A stretch of 64,000 nt of DNA, from sequence record NC_005859.1, one strand, 5' to 3'. Shown one piece after another: positions 6,338 to 17,973 of this stretch; the stretch's first letter is position 1; every line of letters begins with the position of its first letter. This stretch comes from Escherichia phage T5. The notes beneath the pieces are model-generated. The model searched no databases. It was given only the letters and a program-made list of their open reading frames with translations, and was not told where the DNA came from. The translations under genes and the position numbers were made by a program.

Positions 6338-6366
6338 TTGCTTAATCCTACAATTCTTGATATAAT
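6338..6366 (+). promoter_or_regulatory. sigma70-type early promoter
   Basis: -35 TTGCTT, 17-bp spacer, -10 TATAAT. Confidence 0.6.
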
Positions 6367-6423
6367 ATTCTCATAGTTTGAAAGAACTATTCTGTTTTAT
6401 TCTTAATTAAGGAAATATAAAAT

Positions 6424-9567: not shown

Positions 9568-10327
9568 ACTGAACTGGAACGTAGAAGGTGTAACCGAGTC
9601 TCTGAAAGCAAAAGCCACTGCTCTGGGTGTTGATGTAATCTCTCAAGAACAAGTAGCTGCTATCGCTGCTGAACTGGCTGCTGAAACTGGCAAAGACGTT
9701 ACCGCTCGCTCTGTTGGCTCTAAGCTGCGTAAAGAAGGTTTCGAAGTACAGAAAGCTAACGAAGTACAGAAATCCCCGTGGACTCCTGAGCAGGAAGCTG
9801 AACTGGTTGATTTCCTGAACGCTCATGCTGGTCAGTATACTTATGCTGAAATCGCTGCTGCTGTAGCTGGTGGTCAATTTGGTGCTAAGCAGGTACAGGG
9901 TAAGATCCTGAGTCTGGAAATGACAGCATCTGTTAAGCCGACCGAAAAAGCTGCCGCTGTTCGTTCCTTCACTCCGGATGAAGAAACTGACTTTGTTAAT
10001 CAGGTTGTTGCTGGTGCTACTATTGAAGCTATCGCTGCTCACTTCGGTCGCAATATTAAGCAGATCCGTGGTAAAGCTCTGAGTCTGCTTCGTGAAGGTC
10101 GTATCGCGGCTATGCCGGTACAGGAAACTTCAAGTGCTAAAACTCGTGAAGATCTGCTAGAAGGTCTGGATCTGGTTAACATGACCGTTGCTGAGATCGC
10201 TGAGAAAACTGGTAAGTCTGAGCGTGGTGTTAAATCTATGCTGTCTCGTCGTGGTCTGGTTGCTAAGGACTATGATGGTGCCGCTAAGCGTGCTAAACTG
10301 GATGCAAAAGCTGCGGCTGCTGAATAA
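9560..10327 (+). CDS. hypothetical abundant protein with internal repeated HTH-like modules
   Basis: 255 aa; strongly optimised codon usage; repeated ~45-aa units (TPEQEAELVDF / TPDEETDFVNQ / MTVAEIAEKTGKSERGVKSML). Confidence 0.7.
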   Translation: MSKLNWNVEGVTESLKAKATALGVDVISQEQVAAIAAELAAETGKDVTARSVGSKLRKEGFEVQKANEVQKSPWTPEQEAELVDFLNAHAGQYTYAEIAAAVAGGQFGAKQVQGKILSLEMTASVKPTEKAAAVRSFTPDEETDFVNQVVAGATIEAIAAHFGRNIKQIRGKALSLLREGRIAAMPVQETSSAKTREDLLEGLDLVNMTVAEIAEKTGKSERGVKSMLSRRGLVAKDYDGAAKRAKLDAKAAAAE

Positions 10328-10358
10328 TCTGGTAAATTAAACCTAAGGGGAGGGGGCT

Positions 10359-11867
10359 ATGCTCCTTCCCCTTTTTGCATTTAGAAGGCACGAAAGCGTG
10401 CAAAGGAGAATGACCTTGTTTAACGTGCAAGCTGTAGTGTTGAAGATGCTTCTAGCTTCCGAACAGAAGCAAATAGCATTGGAAACATTCTCAAAACTGC
10501 ATAAAGATCATTTTAATGACGCTTTCTCCTCAATTTACCAAGCCGTCCAGAATTATTATAAAAAATATAACACAATGCCGTCCATTGACGCACTGATGCT
10601 TGAGGCTAATAGGAACGCCCGCCTTTCTCAAGCTCTAGTCGTTTTAGCTAACACTCAAATTCCAGAAGTTAGCATGGAACAGGCACTTGAAGTCCTAGAG
10701 GCCGAGTATACACAGGATTTATTCCTGAAGCTTCTAGAAACAGACGTGCTTCAAGATTTAACAATGCTGGATCAGGGAGAAATTCTTAACCGAGTTGCCT
10801 CCCTTCACTTAAAATTAGAAGAGAAAGTAACGAATACTGGAAAAGTATTCAACGCAGATAACATGCGTATTTTCCAGAGAGAAGAAGATACCAAACTGAA
10901 CTTAATCGCTCTTGGTATTTGTAATGAGTTCGACGCTCAAATTGGTTTAGCTCGCACAGAAACGTTACTGCTTGGTGGTTGGCGTGGTACTGGTAAATCC
11001 ATTATCTGTTCAAACATACAGGTTGGAGATATTGCTCCATACTTCTCAATTGAGATGAAAGAACATGAAGTATTTAGACGTAATCTAGCCATGTTAGCTG
11101 GTGTATCAGCACTAGCAATGCGAAATAATACTCTAGAAGGTGCAGCTCTGTTGAGATTAGCCAGAACTAGAGCTAGAATGTTTAACGGTGGTGAAGAGCT
11201 TTTCGATAACTTCGTTAAACAATACACAATGGCTAAGATGAGTGATTTCTACGATATGGAAAGTAAGCTAATAGAAGGATATGAGCTACATACTCCTATG
11301 ATTATTGTTTATGATCCTGAGCTGTCTATTACAACAGTTGACGTAGAATTAAATAAATTAGTTGCTAGATATGGGGATAAAGTTACAGTAGCTTTACTTG
11401 ACTATATTAACCAAACCCGACTTCCAGATTCTAAAACCATTGATATGTATGACTGGAAAGAACAGATGGTTGTTAGCTCGTCTTTCAAATCCATCTGCCA
11501 GAAACATAACGTGGCTGGTGTAGCTCCTTACCAGATTGATCAAGATGGTAGAACACGTATGTCAAAAGGGATTCTTGATTCCGCAGACATGGCTGCTAAT
11601 CTTAATGCTGCAAAAGCTGATAATGGTCAAGGTGCTATTATGTTTGACTTCGTTAAGACCCGTTCTTCTGATAGCGTGAAGTTTATGCCTAAAATGAACT
11701 GGGAAACCCTGCGGATGGATAACACTACCAACCTAGCAATGGAAGATATATCTCAAATGGAAGCTGAGTTCGTTATCCCTATTGAGAAGGATAAGCCGGC
11801 TCAATCTAAACGTGCTAAGAAAGACAAAGCTGAAAATTCAACAGGTGAACAGGCCAGCGATATATGA
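10359..11867 (+). CDS. DnaB-like replicative helicase
   Basis: Walker A GGWRGTGKS; RecA-like C-terminal half; exact start uncertain (10359 has ggagg RBS, alternatives 10410/10416). Confidence 0.75.
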   Translation: MLLPLFAFRRHESVQRRMTLFNVQAVVLKMLLASEQKQIALETFSKLHKDHFNDAFSSIYQAVQNYYKKYNTMPSIDALMLEANRNARLSQALVVLANTQIPEVSMEQALEVLEAEYTQDLFLKLLETDVLQDLTMLDQGEILNRVASLHLKLEEKVTNTGKVFNADNMRIFQREEDTKLNLIALGICNEFDAQIGLARTETLLLGGWRGTGKSIICSNIQVGDIAPYFSIEMKEHEVFRRNLAMLAGVSALAMRNNTLEGAALLRLARTRARMFNGGEELFDNFVKQYTMAKMSDFYDMESKLIEGYELHTPMIIVYDPELSITTVDVELNKLVARYGDKVTVALLDYINQTRLPDSKTIDMYDWKEQMVVSSSFKSICQKHNVAGVAPYQIDQDGRTRMSKGILDSADMAANLNAAKADNGQGAIMFDFVKTRSSDSVKFMPKMNWETLRMDNTTNLAMEDISQMEAEFVIPIEKDKPAQSKRAKKDKAENSTGEQASDI

Positions 11868-12397
11868 TAACACAGGAAAGGCTAAAAGAGTTATTTGATT
11901 ACTCCCCAGGAACTGGGGAGTTTACTAGAAAAGTATCTAGAGGTAATCAGAAAGCTGGTAGTATAGTAACCAGAAAAGACTCTAACGGTTATATAATTAT
12001 TGGTATAGATGGCAAGGATTACAAAGCCCATCGGATGGCTTTTCTATTTATGGAAAATACATTACCGGAAAAAGTAGACCATGTAAATAGAATACCCTTT
12101 GATAATAGGTGGTGTAATCTAAGAGATGCCACAGCCCAGGAAAATAGTAGAAATAAAACCGCATGTAGTAAGTCTGGATACTTGGGAGTTGCTTGGGATA
12201 TCGAAAAACAAAGATGGAGAGTTCAGGTAAGAGACTCTAATAGCACTCTTAAAAATGGTGGCAGATTTAAGTATGAGGAGCTAGAGCTAGCTGTAAATTC
12301 AGCAAATATACTAAGGACTAAGTTACATGGAGAACGTGCTGTTATAGAAATTTTTGATACATCTAATTATCCTTCACTGGAGGAGTTAAATTCATGA
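11864..12397 (+). CDS. HNH homing endonuclease with AP2-like domain
   Basis: 177 aa; AHRMAF...VDHVNRIPFDNRWCNLR..T..EN HNH motif; YLGVAWD...RWRVQV AP2-like; ATGA overlaps with both neighbours. Confidence 0.75.
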   Translation: MITQERLKELFDYSPGTGEFTRKVSRGNQKAGSIVTRKDSNGYIIIGIDGKDYKAHRMAFLFMENTLPEKVDHVNRIPFDNRWCNLRDATAQENSRNKTACSKSGYLGVAWDIEKQRWRVQVRDSNSTLKNGGRFKYEELELAVNSANILRTKLHGERAVIEIFDTSNYPSLEELNS

Positions 12398-13284
12398 GTC
12401 GAATAACAGAATTACTTGATCTTAAGGGAATTGAGTATAAAGATACTGGTGGAGATATTTTAATCTGTTGTCTCAATCCAGATCATGACGATAAACACCC
12501 AAGTTTGCGTATTGACCCTGAAACAGGTATTATGCACTGCTTGAGTTGTGGCTTCGGTAAAGGTATACCGAGCATTTACCATTATTTTAATGAGACTCAG
12601 TACCGACAGTCCCCAAGGCTATCGCAAGTACGTAAAAAGATTTCAGAGATTAGGAATGGATCAACGAATCTTGCAATTCCTGAATCTGCTTACCTTTTCG
12701 AAGGTGATTTCCGAGGTATAAGTTCTAAGACCTTGAAGAAATATTTTGCTTTCCAACACCAAGCAGACTGGGAAGGCAGAATTGTATTCCCAATCACAGA
12801 TGCTGTTGGACGCAATATCCTATTTTTGGGTCGTTCTATAAACAGTTCTGCCCCTCCTAAATACTTAGTAAAACCAAAACAAGTTTCACCACCAATTTTT
12901 CCTGTACGATATAATACTCCGGTTCTTATTCTAGTTGAAGGCATCTTTGATATGCTGAACCTAGAGGATAATGGTATAGACTATGCTTCTTGCTGCTTTG
13001 GTACACATCAGTTTACTTCGGATAACATTGCAGATAAGTTCAGTCCTTATATTATTGCCGGTGTAAAAGTTGTTGTTATCTTACTAGATAATGATGCTTC
13101 TGGTAATAAAGCTGCACAAGCATTGGCCAAGCTAATTCGTACAAAAACGCGTTTAACACCTGTAGTTGCTAACTTTCTTCTGCCTGAAGGTAAAGACCCG
13201 GGTGACTTAAATAAAGAAGAGATTGATACGTTAGCAAAACGTATTGAAATTTTAGTTGCTGAATCGCTTAAAGATTTGGTATAA
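12394..13284 (+). CDS. DNA primase (CHC2 zinc finger plus Toprim)
   Basis: C..NPDH...H..LSCGFGKG zinc finger; Toprim-like ILVEGIFD and LLDNDASG motifs. Confidence 0.8.
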   Translation: MSRITELLDLKGIEYKDTGGDILICCLNPDHDDKHPSLRIDPETGIMHCLSCGFGKGIPSIYHYFNETQYRQSPRLSQVRKKISEIRNGSTNLAIPESAYLFEGDFRGISSKTLKKYFAFQHQADWEGRIVFPITDAVGRNILFLGRSINSSAPPKYLVKPKQVSPPIFPVRYNTPVLILVEGIFDMLNLEDNGIDYASCCFGTHQFTSDNIADKFSPYIIAGVKVVVILLDNDASGNKAAQALAKLIRTKTRLTPVVANFLLPEGKDPGDLNKEEIDTLAKRIEILVAESLKDLV

Positions 13285-13288
13285 TATA

Positions 13289-13333
13289 TTGGTAAGTTAG
13301 AGAAGAAACACTGAAGTTATACTTACTTACCAA
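13289..13333 (+). promoter_or_regulatory. leader hairpin immediately 5' of DNA polymerase RBS
   Basis: 9-bp stem ttggtaagt / acttaccaa with ~27-nt loop ending 1 nt before SD aggaga; possible extended -10 TGgTATAAT at 13277-13285. Confidence 0.35.
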
Positions 13334-13346
13334 GAGGAGATTAAAT

Positions 13347-15914
13347 TTGAAAATCGCAGTAGTTGATAAAGCTCTAAACAACACTCGTTATGATAAACAT
13401 TTCCAGCTATACGGCGAGGAAGTTGATGTATTCCATATGTGTAACGAGAAGTTGTCCGGTCGTTTGCTCAAAAAGCATATTACTATCGGAACTCCGGAAA
13501 ACCCATTTGACCCGAATGATTATGATTTTGTTATACTGGTAGGTGCCGAACCTTTCCTGTACTTTGCAGGTAAGAAAGGTATTGGTGATTATACCGGTAA
13601 ACGTGTAGAGTATAATGGATATGCTAACTGGATTGCGAGTATCAGCCCAGCCCAGTTACACTTTAAACCTGAAATGAAACCAGTTTTTGATGCAACAGTA
13701 GAGAATATCCACGATATTATCAATGGTCGTGAGAAGATTGCAAAAGCTGGTGATTACCGTCCTATTACTGACCCTGATGAGGCTGAAGAATATATCAAGA
13801 TGGTGTATAATATGGTTATCGGACCCGTCGCATTCGACTCCGAAACCTCAGCACTATACTGTCGAGATGGTTATCTGCTTGGTGTTTCTATTTCTCACCA
13901 AGAGTATCAGGGTGTATATATCGATTCTGATTGTCTCACAGAGGTTGCAGTATATTATCTCCAGAAAATTCTGGATAGTGAAAACCACACTATTGTTTTT
14001 CACAACTTGAAGTTTGATATGCACTTTTATAAGTACCATCTGGGACTTACTTTTGATAAAGCACATAAAGAACGCAGGCTCCATGATACCATGTTGCAGC
14101 ACTATGTTTTAGATGAACGTCGTGGTACTCATGGCTTGAAATCTCTAGCAATGAAGTATACCGATATGGGTGACTATGACTTCGAACTAGATAAGTTCAA
14201 AGATGATTACTGTAAAGCACATAAAATCAAGAAAGAAGATTTCACCTATGATTTAATTCCGTTTGATATTATGTGGCCATATGCTGCGAAAGATACGGAT
14301 GCCACTATACGTTTGCACAACTTCTTTTTACCAAAAATTGAGAAGAATGAAAAACTTTGCAGTCTGTATTACGATGTTTTGATGCCTGGTTGCGTATTCT
14401 TGCAACGTGTTGAGGATCGTGGAGTACCTATCTCTATTGATCGTTTGAAAGAAGCTCAGTATCAGTTGACTCATAATTTGAATAAAGCCCGTGAGAAACT
14501 GTACACTTATCCAGAAGTTAAACAGCTAGAACAAGATCAGAATGAAGCATTTAACCCGAACTCTGTTAAGCAGCTACGTGTTCTTCTGTTTGATTACGTT
14601 GGCTTAACTCCAACAGGTAAACTGACGGATACTGGAGCAGATTCTACGGATGCAGAAGCTCTAAATGAACTGGCTACGCAGCATCCAATTGCTAAAACTC
14701 TGCTAGAGATTCGTAAGCTGACTAAGCTGATCTCTACTTATGTTGAGAAGATTCTACTGAGTATTGATGCAGATGGTTGCATTCGTACTGGTTTCCATGA
14801 ACATATGACTACTTCTGGTCGTCTGAGTTCTTCTGGTAAACTGAACCTGCAACAGTTACCCCGTGATGAATCTATTATCAAGGGTTGTGTAGTAGCTCCT
14901 CCTGGGTATCGTGTAATCGCGTGGGACTTAACAACTGCGGAAGTTTATTATGCTGCTGTTCTATCTGGTGATAGAAATATGCAACAGGTATTTATCAACA
15001 TGAGAAATGAACCCGATAAATACCCAGACTTCCACTCCAACATCGCACACATGGTGTTTAAGCTGCAATGCGAACCCCGTGATGTTAAAAAGCTGTTCCC
15101 AGCTCTGCGTCAGGCTGCTAAAGCAATCACCTTCGGTATTCTGTATGGTTCTGGCCCAGCTAAAGTAGCGCATTCTGTTAACGAAGCATTACTAGAACAA
15201 GCAGCCAAGACGGGCGAACCGTTTGTTGAATGTACTGTTGCAGATGCTAAAGAGTACATTGAGACTTACTTCGGTCAGTTCCCACAGCTTAAGCGTTGGA
15301 TTGATAAGTGCCACGATCAGATCAAGAATCATGGATTTATCTATAGTCACTTTGGTCGTAAACGTCGTCTGCATAATATCCATTCCGAAGACCGTGGTGT
15401 TCAGGGTGAAGAAATTCGTTCTGGATTTAATGCAATCATTCAGTCTGCTTCTTCTGATAGTCTCCTTTTAGGTGCTGTAGATGCAGATAATGAGATCATT
15501 TCTCTTGGTTTAGAACAAGAGATGAAGATTGTTATGTTGGTTCATGACTCCGTAGTTGCTATTGTTCGTGAGGATTTGATCGACCAATACAATGAAATCC
15601 TGATTCGTAATATTCAGAAAGACCGTGGTATCAGTATTCCTGGCTGTCCGATTGGTATTGATTCAGATTCTGAAGCTGGAGGTTCTCGTGACTATTCTTG
15701 TGGTAAGATGAAGAAACAGCACCCATCAATCGCTTGTATTGATGATGATGAATATACTCGTTATGTCAAGGGTGTATTACTTGATGCAGAATTCGAGTAT
15801 AAGAAACTAGCTGCAATGGATAAAGAGCATCCAGATCATAGCAAATACAAGGATGATAAGTTTATTGCTGTATGTAAAGATTTGGATAACGTGAAAAGGA
15901 TTCTCGGTGCTTGA
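13347..15914 (+). CDS. DNA polymerase, family A (PolA-like with 3'-5' exonuclease)
   Basis: 855 aa, TTG start with RBS aggaga; exo motif DSETSALY; motif B KAITFGILYGSG; motif C VHDS; length matches T5 polymerase. Confidence 0.92.
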   Translation: MKIAVVDKALNNTRYDKHFQLYGEEVDVFHMCNEKLSGRLLKKHITIGTPENPFDPNDYDFVILVGAEPFLYFAGKKGIGDYTGKRVEYNGYANWIASISPAQLHFKPEMKPVFDATVENIHDIINGREKIAKAGDYRPITDPDEAEEYIKMVYNMVIGPVAFDSETSALYCRDGYLLGVSISHQEYQGVYIDSDCLTEVAVYYLQKILDSENHTIVFHNLKFDMHFYKYHLGLTFDKAHKERRLHDTMLQHYVLDERRGTHGLKSLAMKYTDMGDYDFELDKFKDDYCKAHKIKKEDFTYDLIPFDIMWPYAAKDTDATIRLHNFFLPKIEKNEKLCSLYYDVLMPGCVFLQRVEDRGVPISIDRLKEAQYQLTHNLNKAREKLYTYPEVKQLEQDQNEAFNPNSVKQLRVLLFDYVGLTPTGKLTDTGADSTDAEALNELATQHPIAKTLLEIRKLTKLISTYVEKILLSIDADGCIRTGFHEHMTTSGRLSSSGKLNLQQLPRDESIIKGCVVAPPGYRVIAWDLTTAEVYYAAVLSGDRNMQQVFINMRNEPDKYPDFHSNIAHMVFKLQCEPRDVKKLFPALRQAAKAITFGILYGSGPAKVAHSVNEALLEQAAKTGEPFVECTVADAKEYIETYFGQFPQLKRWIDKCHDQIKNHGFIYSHFGRKRRLHNIHSEDRGVQGEEIRSGFNAIIQSASSDSLLLGAVDADNEIISLGLEQEMKIVMLVHDSVVAIVREDLIDQYNEILIRNIQKDRGISIPGCPIGIDSDSEAGGSRDYSCGKMKKQHPSIACIDDDEYTRYVKGVLLDAEFEYKKLAAMDKEHPDHSKYKDDKFIAVCKDLDNVKRILGA

Positions 15915-17866: not shown

Positions 17867-17973
17867 ATATACATAAATTCGAGGAGAAAACAAAAATTAA
17901 ATTCTTCGATTATGAAAAGCTATACTTACTAGCTAGAGGAAATTCCGACCTAATTATTAAGCTATTCAAAAGA

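Follow-up and report, generated by a model that had tools for sequence, protein, structure and literature searches.

In phage T4, the DNA polymerase gp43 represses its own translation through a hairpin and a sequence overlapping the Shine-Dalgarno (SD) sequence (PMC3014915). The enzyme is of the pol-alpha (family B) type, and in T4/RB69 the operator hairpin measures 16-18 nt and has the loop UAAC (PMC3014915). Our study concerns a hairpin in front of the DNA polymerase gene of Escherichia phage T5, at the junction between the primase gene D6 and the polymerase gene D7-8-9. The window, meaning the whole stretch of 64,000 nucleotides analyzed here, is the right 64 kb of the 121,750-bp T5 record (NC_005859.1), and its region 12394-15914 was 99.9% identical to AY692264, whose annotation was carried onto window coordinates; the features given below lie on the plus strand. 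Although T5 has long served as a classical model and its polymerase is an enzyme in wide use, no description of post-transcriptional control of T5 replication genes was found in the literature searched. The original prediction, made from the letters of the window, had proposed that a 9-bp stem next to the polymerase SD may be a translational operator resembling that of T4 gp43.

The element was found to be a 45-nt RNA stem-loop of three helices, occupying 13289-13333. In its outer stem, TTGGTAAGT (13289-13297) pairs over 9 bp with ACTTACCAA (13325-13333), leaving 27 nt in between, and a repeat finder gave longer arms of 12 nt (13289-13300 and 13322-13333) that contain one mismatch. The interior consists of a 5' bulge (13298-13302), helix 2 (13303-13305 with 13322-13324), helix 3 (13307-13309 with 13316-13318), and the apical loop ACUGAA (13310-13315). 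The stem was present where it had been predicted, its last base, A13333, directly adjoining the SD GAGGAG (13334-13339), at a distance of 0 nt from GAGGAG or 1 nt from AGGAG. A GGAG core was found at the equivalent position in all relatives compared. A 7-nt spacer separates the SD from the TTG at 13347, at which the 855-aa polymerase open reading frame (ORF; 13347-15914) begins in the ORF list and in AY692264. This TTG start had also been predicted and gains credibility from the relatives, whose ATG falls at precisely this position in the alignment; a start of this weak kind was found in T5 and one other lineage. The 9-bp stem alone was not beyond chance, as perfect 9-bp inverted repeats with loops of 3-40 nt numbered approximately 16 per dinucleotide shuffle of the window, and the fold z-scores were weak at -0.55 (84 nt), -1.1 (41-nt core), and -2.4 (45-nt element). 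The argument for a real stem is therefore comparative, and does not draw on thermodynamics or repeat counts.

Primase-polymerase junctions were gathered from IMG/VR, GenBank phages, and metagenomes. The element recurred with no more than one substitution in approximately 30 Tequintavirus and Epseptimavirus loci, and the three-helix stem-loop was also present in Sugarlandvirus, Novosibvirus, and related phages. With the T5 stem (UUGGUAAGU / ACUUACCAA) as reference, that of Sugarlandvirus was UGGGUAAGU / GCUUACCUA, with two wobbles, that of Eos was CUGUAAG / CUUACAG, and that of Enterobacter KKP_3711 was AUGUAAG / CUUACAU. In the Proteus Novosibvirus stem, GUUGGAU / AUCCAAC, 6/7 core pairs were replaced, while Pantoea AAS21 and a further locus (L032) had the T5 core with one or two mismatches at pairs 2-3. 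Pectobacterium phages had rebuilt their stems, keeping a hairpin that adjoins the SD, the GAGAAAG bulge motif, and the apical CUGA. In every enterobacterial relative, the distance from the end of the 3' arm to the SD was 0-5 nt. When IMG/VR and the metagenomes were scanned with degenerate motifs, the matches were T5-like phages, AT-rich chance matches, and two new variants (L200 and L226).

Covariation was computed on a register-correct alignment (A5) of 12 distinct leaders; the register of the Proteus stem had been mended by trimming to the hairpin, covariance-model realignment having failed to do so. RNAalifold independently recovered the outer stem and the two inner 3-bp helices. Among the 12 leaders, 94.4% of the pairing cells were paired, compared with 27-49% when partners were slid, and changes on both sides were seen at 8 of the 15 pairs. 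The covariation score was 0.371, against 0.180 in shuffles, and was reached by 0 of 500 shuffles. Inside the element, helix 3 changed from C-G to U-A in three lineages and helix 2 from A-U to G-C in Proteus phages. Across the phages carrying the hairpin, leader identity to T5 was 66-85%, while the identity of polymerase third codon positions was 41-51%. The alignments thus argue that the hairpin is real, that it is kept by compensatory mutations, and that its structure is under selection. Lack of conservation had been named at the outset as fatal to the operator proposal; the hairpin is conserved with compensatory changes, and the proposal survived this check.

The unpaired cells included no A.C or C.A combination, and five U.G or G.U wobbles were counted, which indicated that selection acts on a sense-strand RNA rather than on a symmetry of the DNA or an antisense RNA. 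Six unpaired nucleotides (A13301, G13302, A13310, G13313, A13314, and A13321) never varied among the aligned relatives, even though the Proteus phages replaced the outer stem at 6/7 positions, and this constancy suggests a sequence-specific ligand. A K-turn and a CsrA site were considered for the leader and rejected. The element had no tandem G.A positions of a K-turn, and the loops of T5, Sugarland, and Eos contained no GGA for CsrA. A possible match to the Hfq (ARN)3 motif, the invariant AGN-AGN-AAN at 13301-13309, coincided with covarying helix positions. A small upstream ORF was rejected as well: in T5 a TAG interrupts the Sugarland frame (TTG GGT AAG ... TGA), in Eos a 1-nt insertion disrupts it, and the Proteus version, an SD-like AGGAGG with a UUG, is out of frame with the T5 equivalent. 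No Rfam family matched; two sub-threshold chance matches were returned in 13150-13500 (E 0.14 and 5.5).

The hairpin overlaps an early promoter, Ppol, which the original prediction had overlooked. Its -35 element, TTGCTG (13256-13261), follows an A/T-rich tract (13245-13255) and is kept in relatives. An 18-bp spacer leads to TATAAT (13280-13285), the end of an extended -10, TGgTATAAT (13277-13285), and the discriminator ATATT, the signature of T5 early promoters, occupies 13286-13290. The stop codon of the primase gene (TAA, 13282-13284) falls within the -10 hexamer, which ends 3 nt upstream of the stem. All features of T5 early sigma-70 promoters were found at Ppol, namely a TTGCT-type -35, a 17-18-bp spacer, TATAAT, ATATT, and an A/T tract; its architecture agreed with that of the named promoters PN25, PN26, PK28a, and PH207, and PN25, PK28a, and PH207 have the TTGCT-type -35 in common with it. 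A simple promoter scan missed Ppol because TTGCTG agrees with TTGACA at only 3/6 positions. No relative compared, even at 48% polymerase identity, departed from the TATAAT, and a "putative promoter" feature of AY692264 maps to 13244-13312, covering Ppol. Klimuk et al. (2020; PMC7472727) described the ATATT discriminator as common to all T5 early promoters and reported an early "Ppol" primer-extension product in vivo that was seen at 20 min and gone after 30 min. Beyond that study, no map of T5 transcription starts was found in the literature searched. From the name and the sequence signature, we infer that the published Ppol is the promoter at 13256-13290.

Annotation puts the +1 of the named T5 promoters at the 7th or 8th nucleotide after TATAAT, and that of Ppol is therefore predicted at G13292, the 7th nucleotide, or possibly at G13291, the 6th, inside the 5' arm of the hairpin. 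This overlap raises the possibility that the element acts at the level of DNA, as an operator for a DNA-binding protein, as a cruciform, or as a downstream element of Ppol. In favor, the repeat overlaps positions +1 to +42 of Ppol, which as an early promoter is shut off after 30 min, and the block of strongest conservation, 13301-13311, falls at about +10 to +20. However, the wobble pattern fits pairing in sense-strand RNA, the half-sites are 27 bp apart around an asymmetric conserved interior with covarying helices of its own, and no other T5 early promoter has the element, and we consider a role at the DNA level highly improbable. A sigma-70-dependent pause at TATACT (13319-13324) was also considered and rejected, as the hexamer is not conserved, relatives having TTTACT, TGAACT, or TGTACT.

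A terminator scan found 0 terminator-like sites in 12300-14300. Since no such signal separates the primase and polymerase genes, RNA reading through from upstream carries the full 9-bp stem, while RNA started at Ppol, with its predicted +1 inside the 5' arm, would have a stem of at most 6-7 bp, G13292 or G13291 being the first base of this core. Partition-function folding gave a hairpin probability of approximately 1.0 in read-through RNA, 0.99 with the +1 at 13291, and 0.11 with the +1 at 13292; these are equilibrium estimates, and co-transcriptional folding could favor the local hairpin. The hairpin is thus predicted to be complete only in read-through transcripts, a point that alters what any mechanism would have to achieve. 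Pairs 2 and 3 of the stem, which precede or coincide with the predicted start, nonetheless covary (UA/AU/CG/GU and GC/UA), which indicated that read-through RNA is a functional context under selection.

The placement of promoter and hairpin was illustrated further by several Tequintaviruses with an insertion of approximately 387 bp exactly at the Ppol -10 (in Salmonella phage FGS029, 486-880 of locus L245; the slot corresponds to window 13285/13286). The insertion holds a 109-aa ORF, which the old promoter drives through an ordinary short leader, and a second promoter copy, TTGCTA-17-TATAAT-ATATT, is restored directly before the polymerase hairpin. Judged by its sequence, the insertion resembles a promoter-flanked gene cassette.

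The restored copy would suit a throttle on translation that works purely in cis, with no trans-acting factor, in which the hairpin removes the ribosome's upstream standby surface. The full stem would keep translation of read-through RNA low and the weakened stem of Ppol RNA would allow more, so that polymerase output would track Ppol activity. In every T5-like relative, the 5' arm contains the predicted start, the calculated hairpin probability falls from approximately 1.0 (read-through RNA or +1 at 13291) to approximately 0.1 (+1 at 13292), and abutment on the SD is conserved, to which T5 and one other lineage add the weak TTG start. A throttle of this kind leaves the invariant loop and bulge bases unexplained, however, and its isoform difference hangs on a single base of a predicted start and on equilibrium folding; the predicted accessibility of the SD barely differs among the isoforms. 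We consider it an unlikely explanation.

The main rival to an operator is an element of mRNA stability or processing. Ppol RNA would begin with a 5'-terminal stem-loop having no unpaired 5' nucleotide, hindering attack by RppH and RNase E, which depends on the 5' end. In read-through RNA, once the AU-rich spacer between SD and start has been cleaved, the hairpin might remain at the end of the primase message as a 3' barrier, or it might be a recognition site for a nuclease. 5' stem-loops stabilize E. coli mRNAs such as ompA. At the T5 locus, the 6-7-bp core opens with the predicted +1, relatives keep the spacing between -10 and hairpin, and the hairpin and SD together leave almost no single-stranded 5' untranslated region (UTR). 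Within T5, the PN26 transcript likewise begins with a hairpin at +1 (6373-6390), and RN|AUU-type motifs in the spacer at 13339-13346 are compatible with processing. A plain stabilizer would need no six invariant unpaired nucleotides, though, and a 5'-terminal role does not explain the covariation of pairs upstream of the predicted start; with the +1 at G13292, the hairpin is predicted to be only about 10% formed at equilibrium. The Ppol transcript seen at 20 min and gone after 30 min (PMC7472727) indicates a message that is not notably long-lived, and the 15 interrupted A-U-rich base pairs are short for an RNase III substrate. We regard stability or processing as possible, if on the unlikely side.

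Two further T5 leaders came to attention in the comparison of promoters. PN26 (6361-6390, plus strand) has its -10 at 6361-6366 and, by annotation convention, its +1 at A6373, and its transcript opens with the hairpin AUAGUU-UGAAAG-AACUAU at 6373-6390, making it a second T5 message with a 5'-terminal stem-loop. A putative early promoter, TATAATATATT-TGTAAGTTGA, lies upstream of a PhoH-like gene outside the window (locus L244, 15432-15498, minus strand); the leader that follows starts nearly like that of Ppol (GGTAAGTTAGA) and is also unusually long. By this similarity, the two leaders may have a common origin.

The Vibrio relatives bear on whether the element derives from, or acts like, a transcriptional insulator or terminator that pauses or stops RNA polymerase arriving from upstream, such as the terminator of the Vibrio primase operon. 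In five Vibrio loci (L036-L039 and L084), a terminator hairpin with a T-run starts 3-4 nt after the TATAAT, approximately 60-100 nt upstream of the polymerase start. Because this hairpin begins right after the TATAAT, the predicted transcription start falls inside the 5' arm of the terminator, an arrangement by which transcripts from upstream could be terminated and promoter-initiated ones spared. That a hairpin follows the same TATAAT and is itself followed by a T-run, as in GAGGTAATTC...GGATTACCTC TTTTTTATTTT and GGGTGACT...AGTCACCC TTTTTATATT, speaks for such a derivation. The T5-type hairpin, however, has no U-tract after it (the downstream letters are AAGAGGAGAUUAAAU), its stem is A-U rich, and its interior measures 27 nt; the terminator scan found nothing here, and the T5 hairpin model R2 gave no match at the Vibrio loci, so that any homology is at best putative. 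An intrinsic terminator in T5 was rejected, as a G+C-rich stem with an immediate U-tract was seen in the Vibrio relatives only, and a terminator derivative appears very unlikely.

The element was also unique within T5. A covariance model of the hairpin had a single match across the complete T5 genome (71.5 bits, E 2e-13), and no further copies that would form a regulon were found there with models R1 and R2. The leaders behind other T5 early promoters are short and unstructured, of the form CAUAAAUU...GGAG. One weak match to the hairpin model (14 bits, E 4.6) was listed at 17870-17916 (plus strand), in a leader after a promoter upstream of T5p123; there, pairing between the 5' end and the region of the start codon would be possible in CAUAAAUUCGA...UUCGAUUAUG, and the match is probably due to chance.

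Taken together, the comparisons suggest that the hairpin between an early promoter and the ribosome-binding site probably tunes polymerase production, and a post-transcriptional (translational) operator specific to the polymerase is the reading that we tentatively place first, with less than even confidence. It was ranked first because of its polymerase-specific location, its abutment on the SD, its covarying scaffold, and the invariant bases of its bulge and loop. A trans-acting factor would recognize the invariant nucleotides of bulge and apical loop on a stem that is otherwise free in sequence, and, once bound beside the adjoining SD, would limit access of the 30S subunit and so set polymerase output. 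As read-through RNA would present the full stem and Ppol RNA a shortened one, such control would probably depend on the isoform. The presumed ligand could be the polymerase itself, which by analogy with T4 is the leading candidate for autogenous control, albeit a doubtful one. The operator proposal in the original prediction accordingly stands in part: the single polymerase-gene site, the SD abutment, and the invariant unpaired bases fit it, but it had left out the start of Ppol inside the arm.

A more specific version, in which the operator is embedded in the promoter, would make post-transcriptional, and perhaps autogenous, repression of polymerase synthesis depend on the choice between Ppol and read-through. 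In that version, read-through RNA would contain a ligand-competent hairpin and Ppol RNA would be without a complete one. We consider this version rather improbable.

Several observations weigh against an operator. The thermodynamics of the hairpin are marginal (-7 to -10 kcal/mol), and the SD, with a predicted probability of being unpaired of 0.5-0.85 in all isoforms, is not sequestered by the hairpin. The invariant loop bases could instead serve an RNase or the ribosome and not a repressor. Relatives with 42-50% polymerase identity have the promoter and a short leader with no hairpin, which indicated that possession of the element is no inherent trait of this polymerase lineage; in the Vibrio Demerecviridae (approximately 48% polymerase identity), the hairpin at the same TATAAT offset is a plain terminator with a T-run, approximately 45 nt from the SD. 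The T5 polymerase belongs to family A (PF00476, 2e-66, with the 3'-5' exonuclease domain PF01612, in a Pfam search of the ORF at 13347-15914) and is unrelated to gp43, and we know of no report of a family-A phage polymerase that binds its own mRNA.

Within Demerecviridae, the hairpin offers itself as a candidate for a new family of cis-regulatory RNAs, and the overlap of start site and hairpin arm would provide a simple case of isoform-specific regulation. If the ligand is the polymerase, autogenous control of the replicase would extend from the T4-type family-B enzymes to an unrelated family-A enzyme, a case of convergent evolution. If the promoter-embedded operator holds true, it would couple the choice of transcription start to translational control in a new way and would be the first RNA operator of a phage polymerase of the Pol I type. 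Should the element tune only stability, or translation in cis, it would be an ordinary structured leader.

The surrounding genes showed further features. The primase gene D6 (12394-13284), present in the ORF list and in the AY692264 annotation, encodes 296 aa with Pfam matches to Toprim and the DnaG zinc ribbon. An HNH-endonuclease-like ORF (11864-12397, plus strand) is squeezed in between the genes for helicase and primase, with stop and start codons that overlap; in Vibrio phage D423, unlike T5, the HNH gene sits between primase and polymerase. Further upstream (10345-10383, plus strand), between a Myb-like gene ending at 10327 and the replicative helicase ORF, is a 13-bp G+C-rich hairpin, AAGGGGAGGGGGCT-ATG-CTCCTTCCCCTT, followed by TTTGCATTTA, with the helicase ATG (10359) in its loop. 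From its sequence and its position upstream of the helicase, HNH, and primase genes, it looks like a terminator, an attenuator, or a structure that presents the start codon.

Compared with known systems, the T5 element shares single traits with several. Structured RNAs with conserved internal-loop bases occur near early promoters or between early genes in the nut boxB of lambdoid phages, the put sites of HK022, and the RNase III site R1.1 of T7. The T5 element differs from these in being single-copy, and its short, interrupted helix would not make a typical RNase III site; we know of no evidence for antitermination in T5. Like the ompA-type stabilizers and the PN26 leader, the hairpin would begin at or within 1 nt of +1, going by the predicted start of Ppol, but its stem extends and covaries upstream of that start, and its bulge and loop bases are invariant. 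The Vibrio terminators (L036-L039 and L084) occupy the same slot between primase and polymerase, with a hairpin 3-5 nt after the invariant TATAAT; they have short loops, a T-run, and a distance of approximately 45 nt to the SD, whereas the T5 hairpin has no T-run, has a large structured interior, and adjoins the SD.

The T4/RB69 gp43 operator resembles the T5 element in being a hairpin in the 5' UTR of a phage DNA polymerase gene, just upstream of or adjoining the SD, with a loop sequence conserved among relatives and a gene product that is a nucleic-acid-binding replication enzyme. It reaches into the ribosome-binding site, and the T5 position is comparable, with the 3' arm ending at 13333 and the SD at 13334-13339. 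The differences are also considerable: the T4/RB69 polymerase is of family B (PMC3014915) and that of T5 of family A, and a hairpin of 16-18 nt with a UAAC loop stands against one of 45 nt with three helices and an ACUGAA loop, with no sequence similarity. In the T5 element, a predicted promoter start lies inside the 5' arm. The analogy drawn in the original prediction therefore holds for a hairpin beside the SD of a phage polymerase gene, and not for the polymerase family, the hairpin architecture, or the loop; the sequences indicate that the T5 element is not homologous to the T4 operator and that the analogy between them is functional at most.

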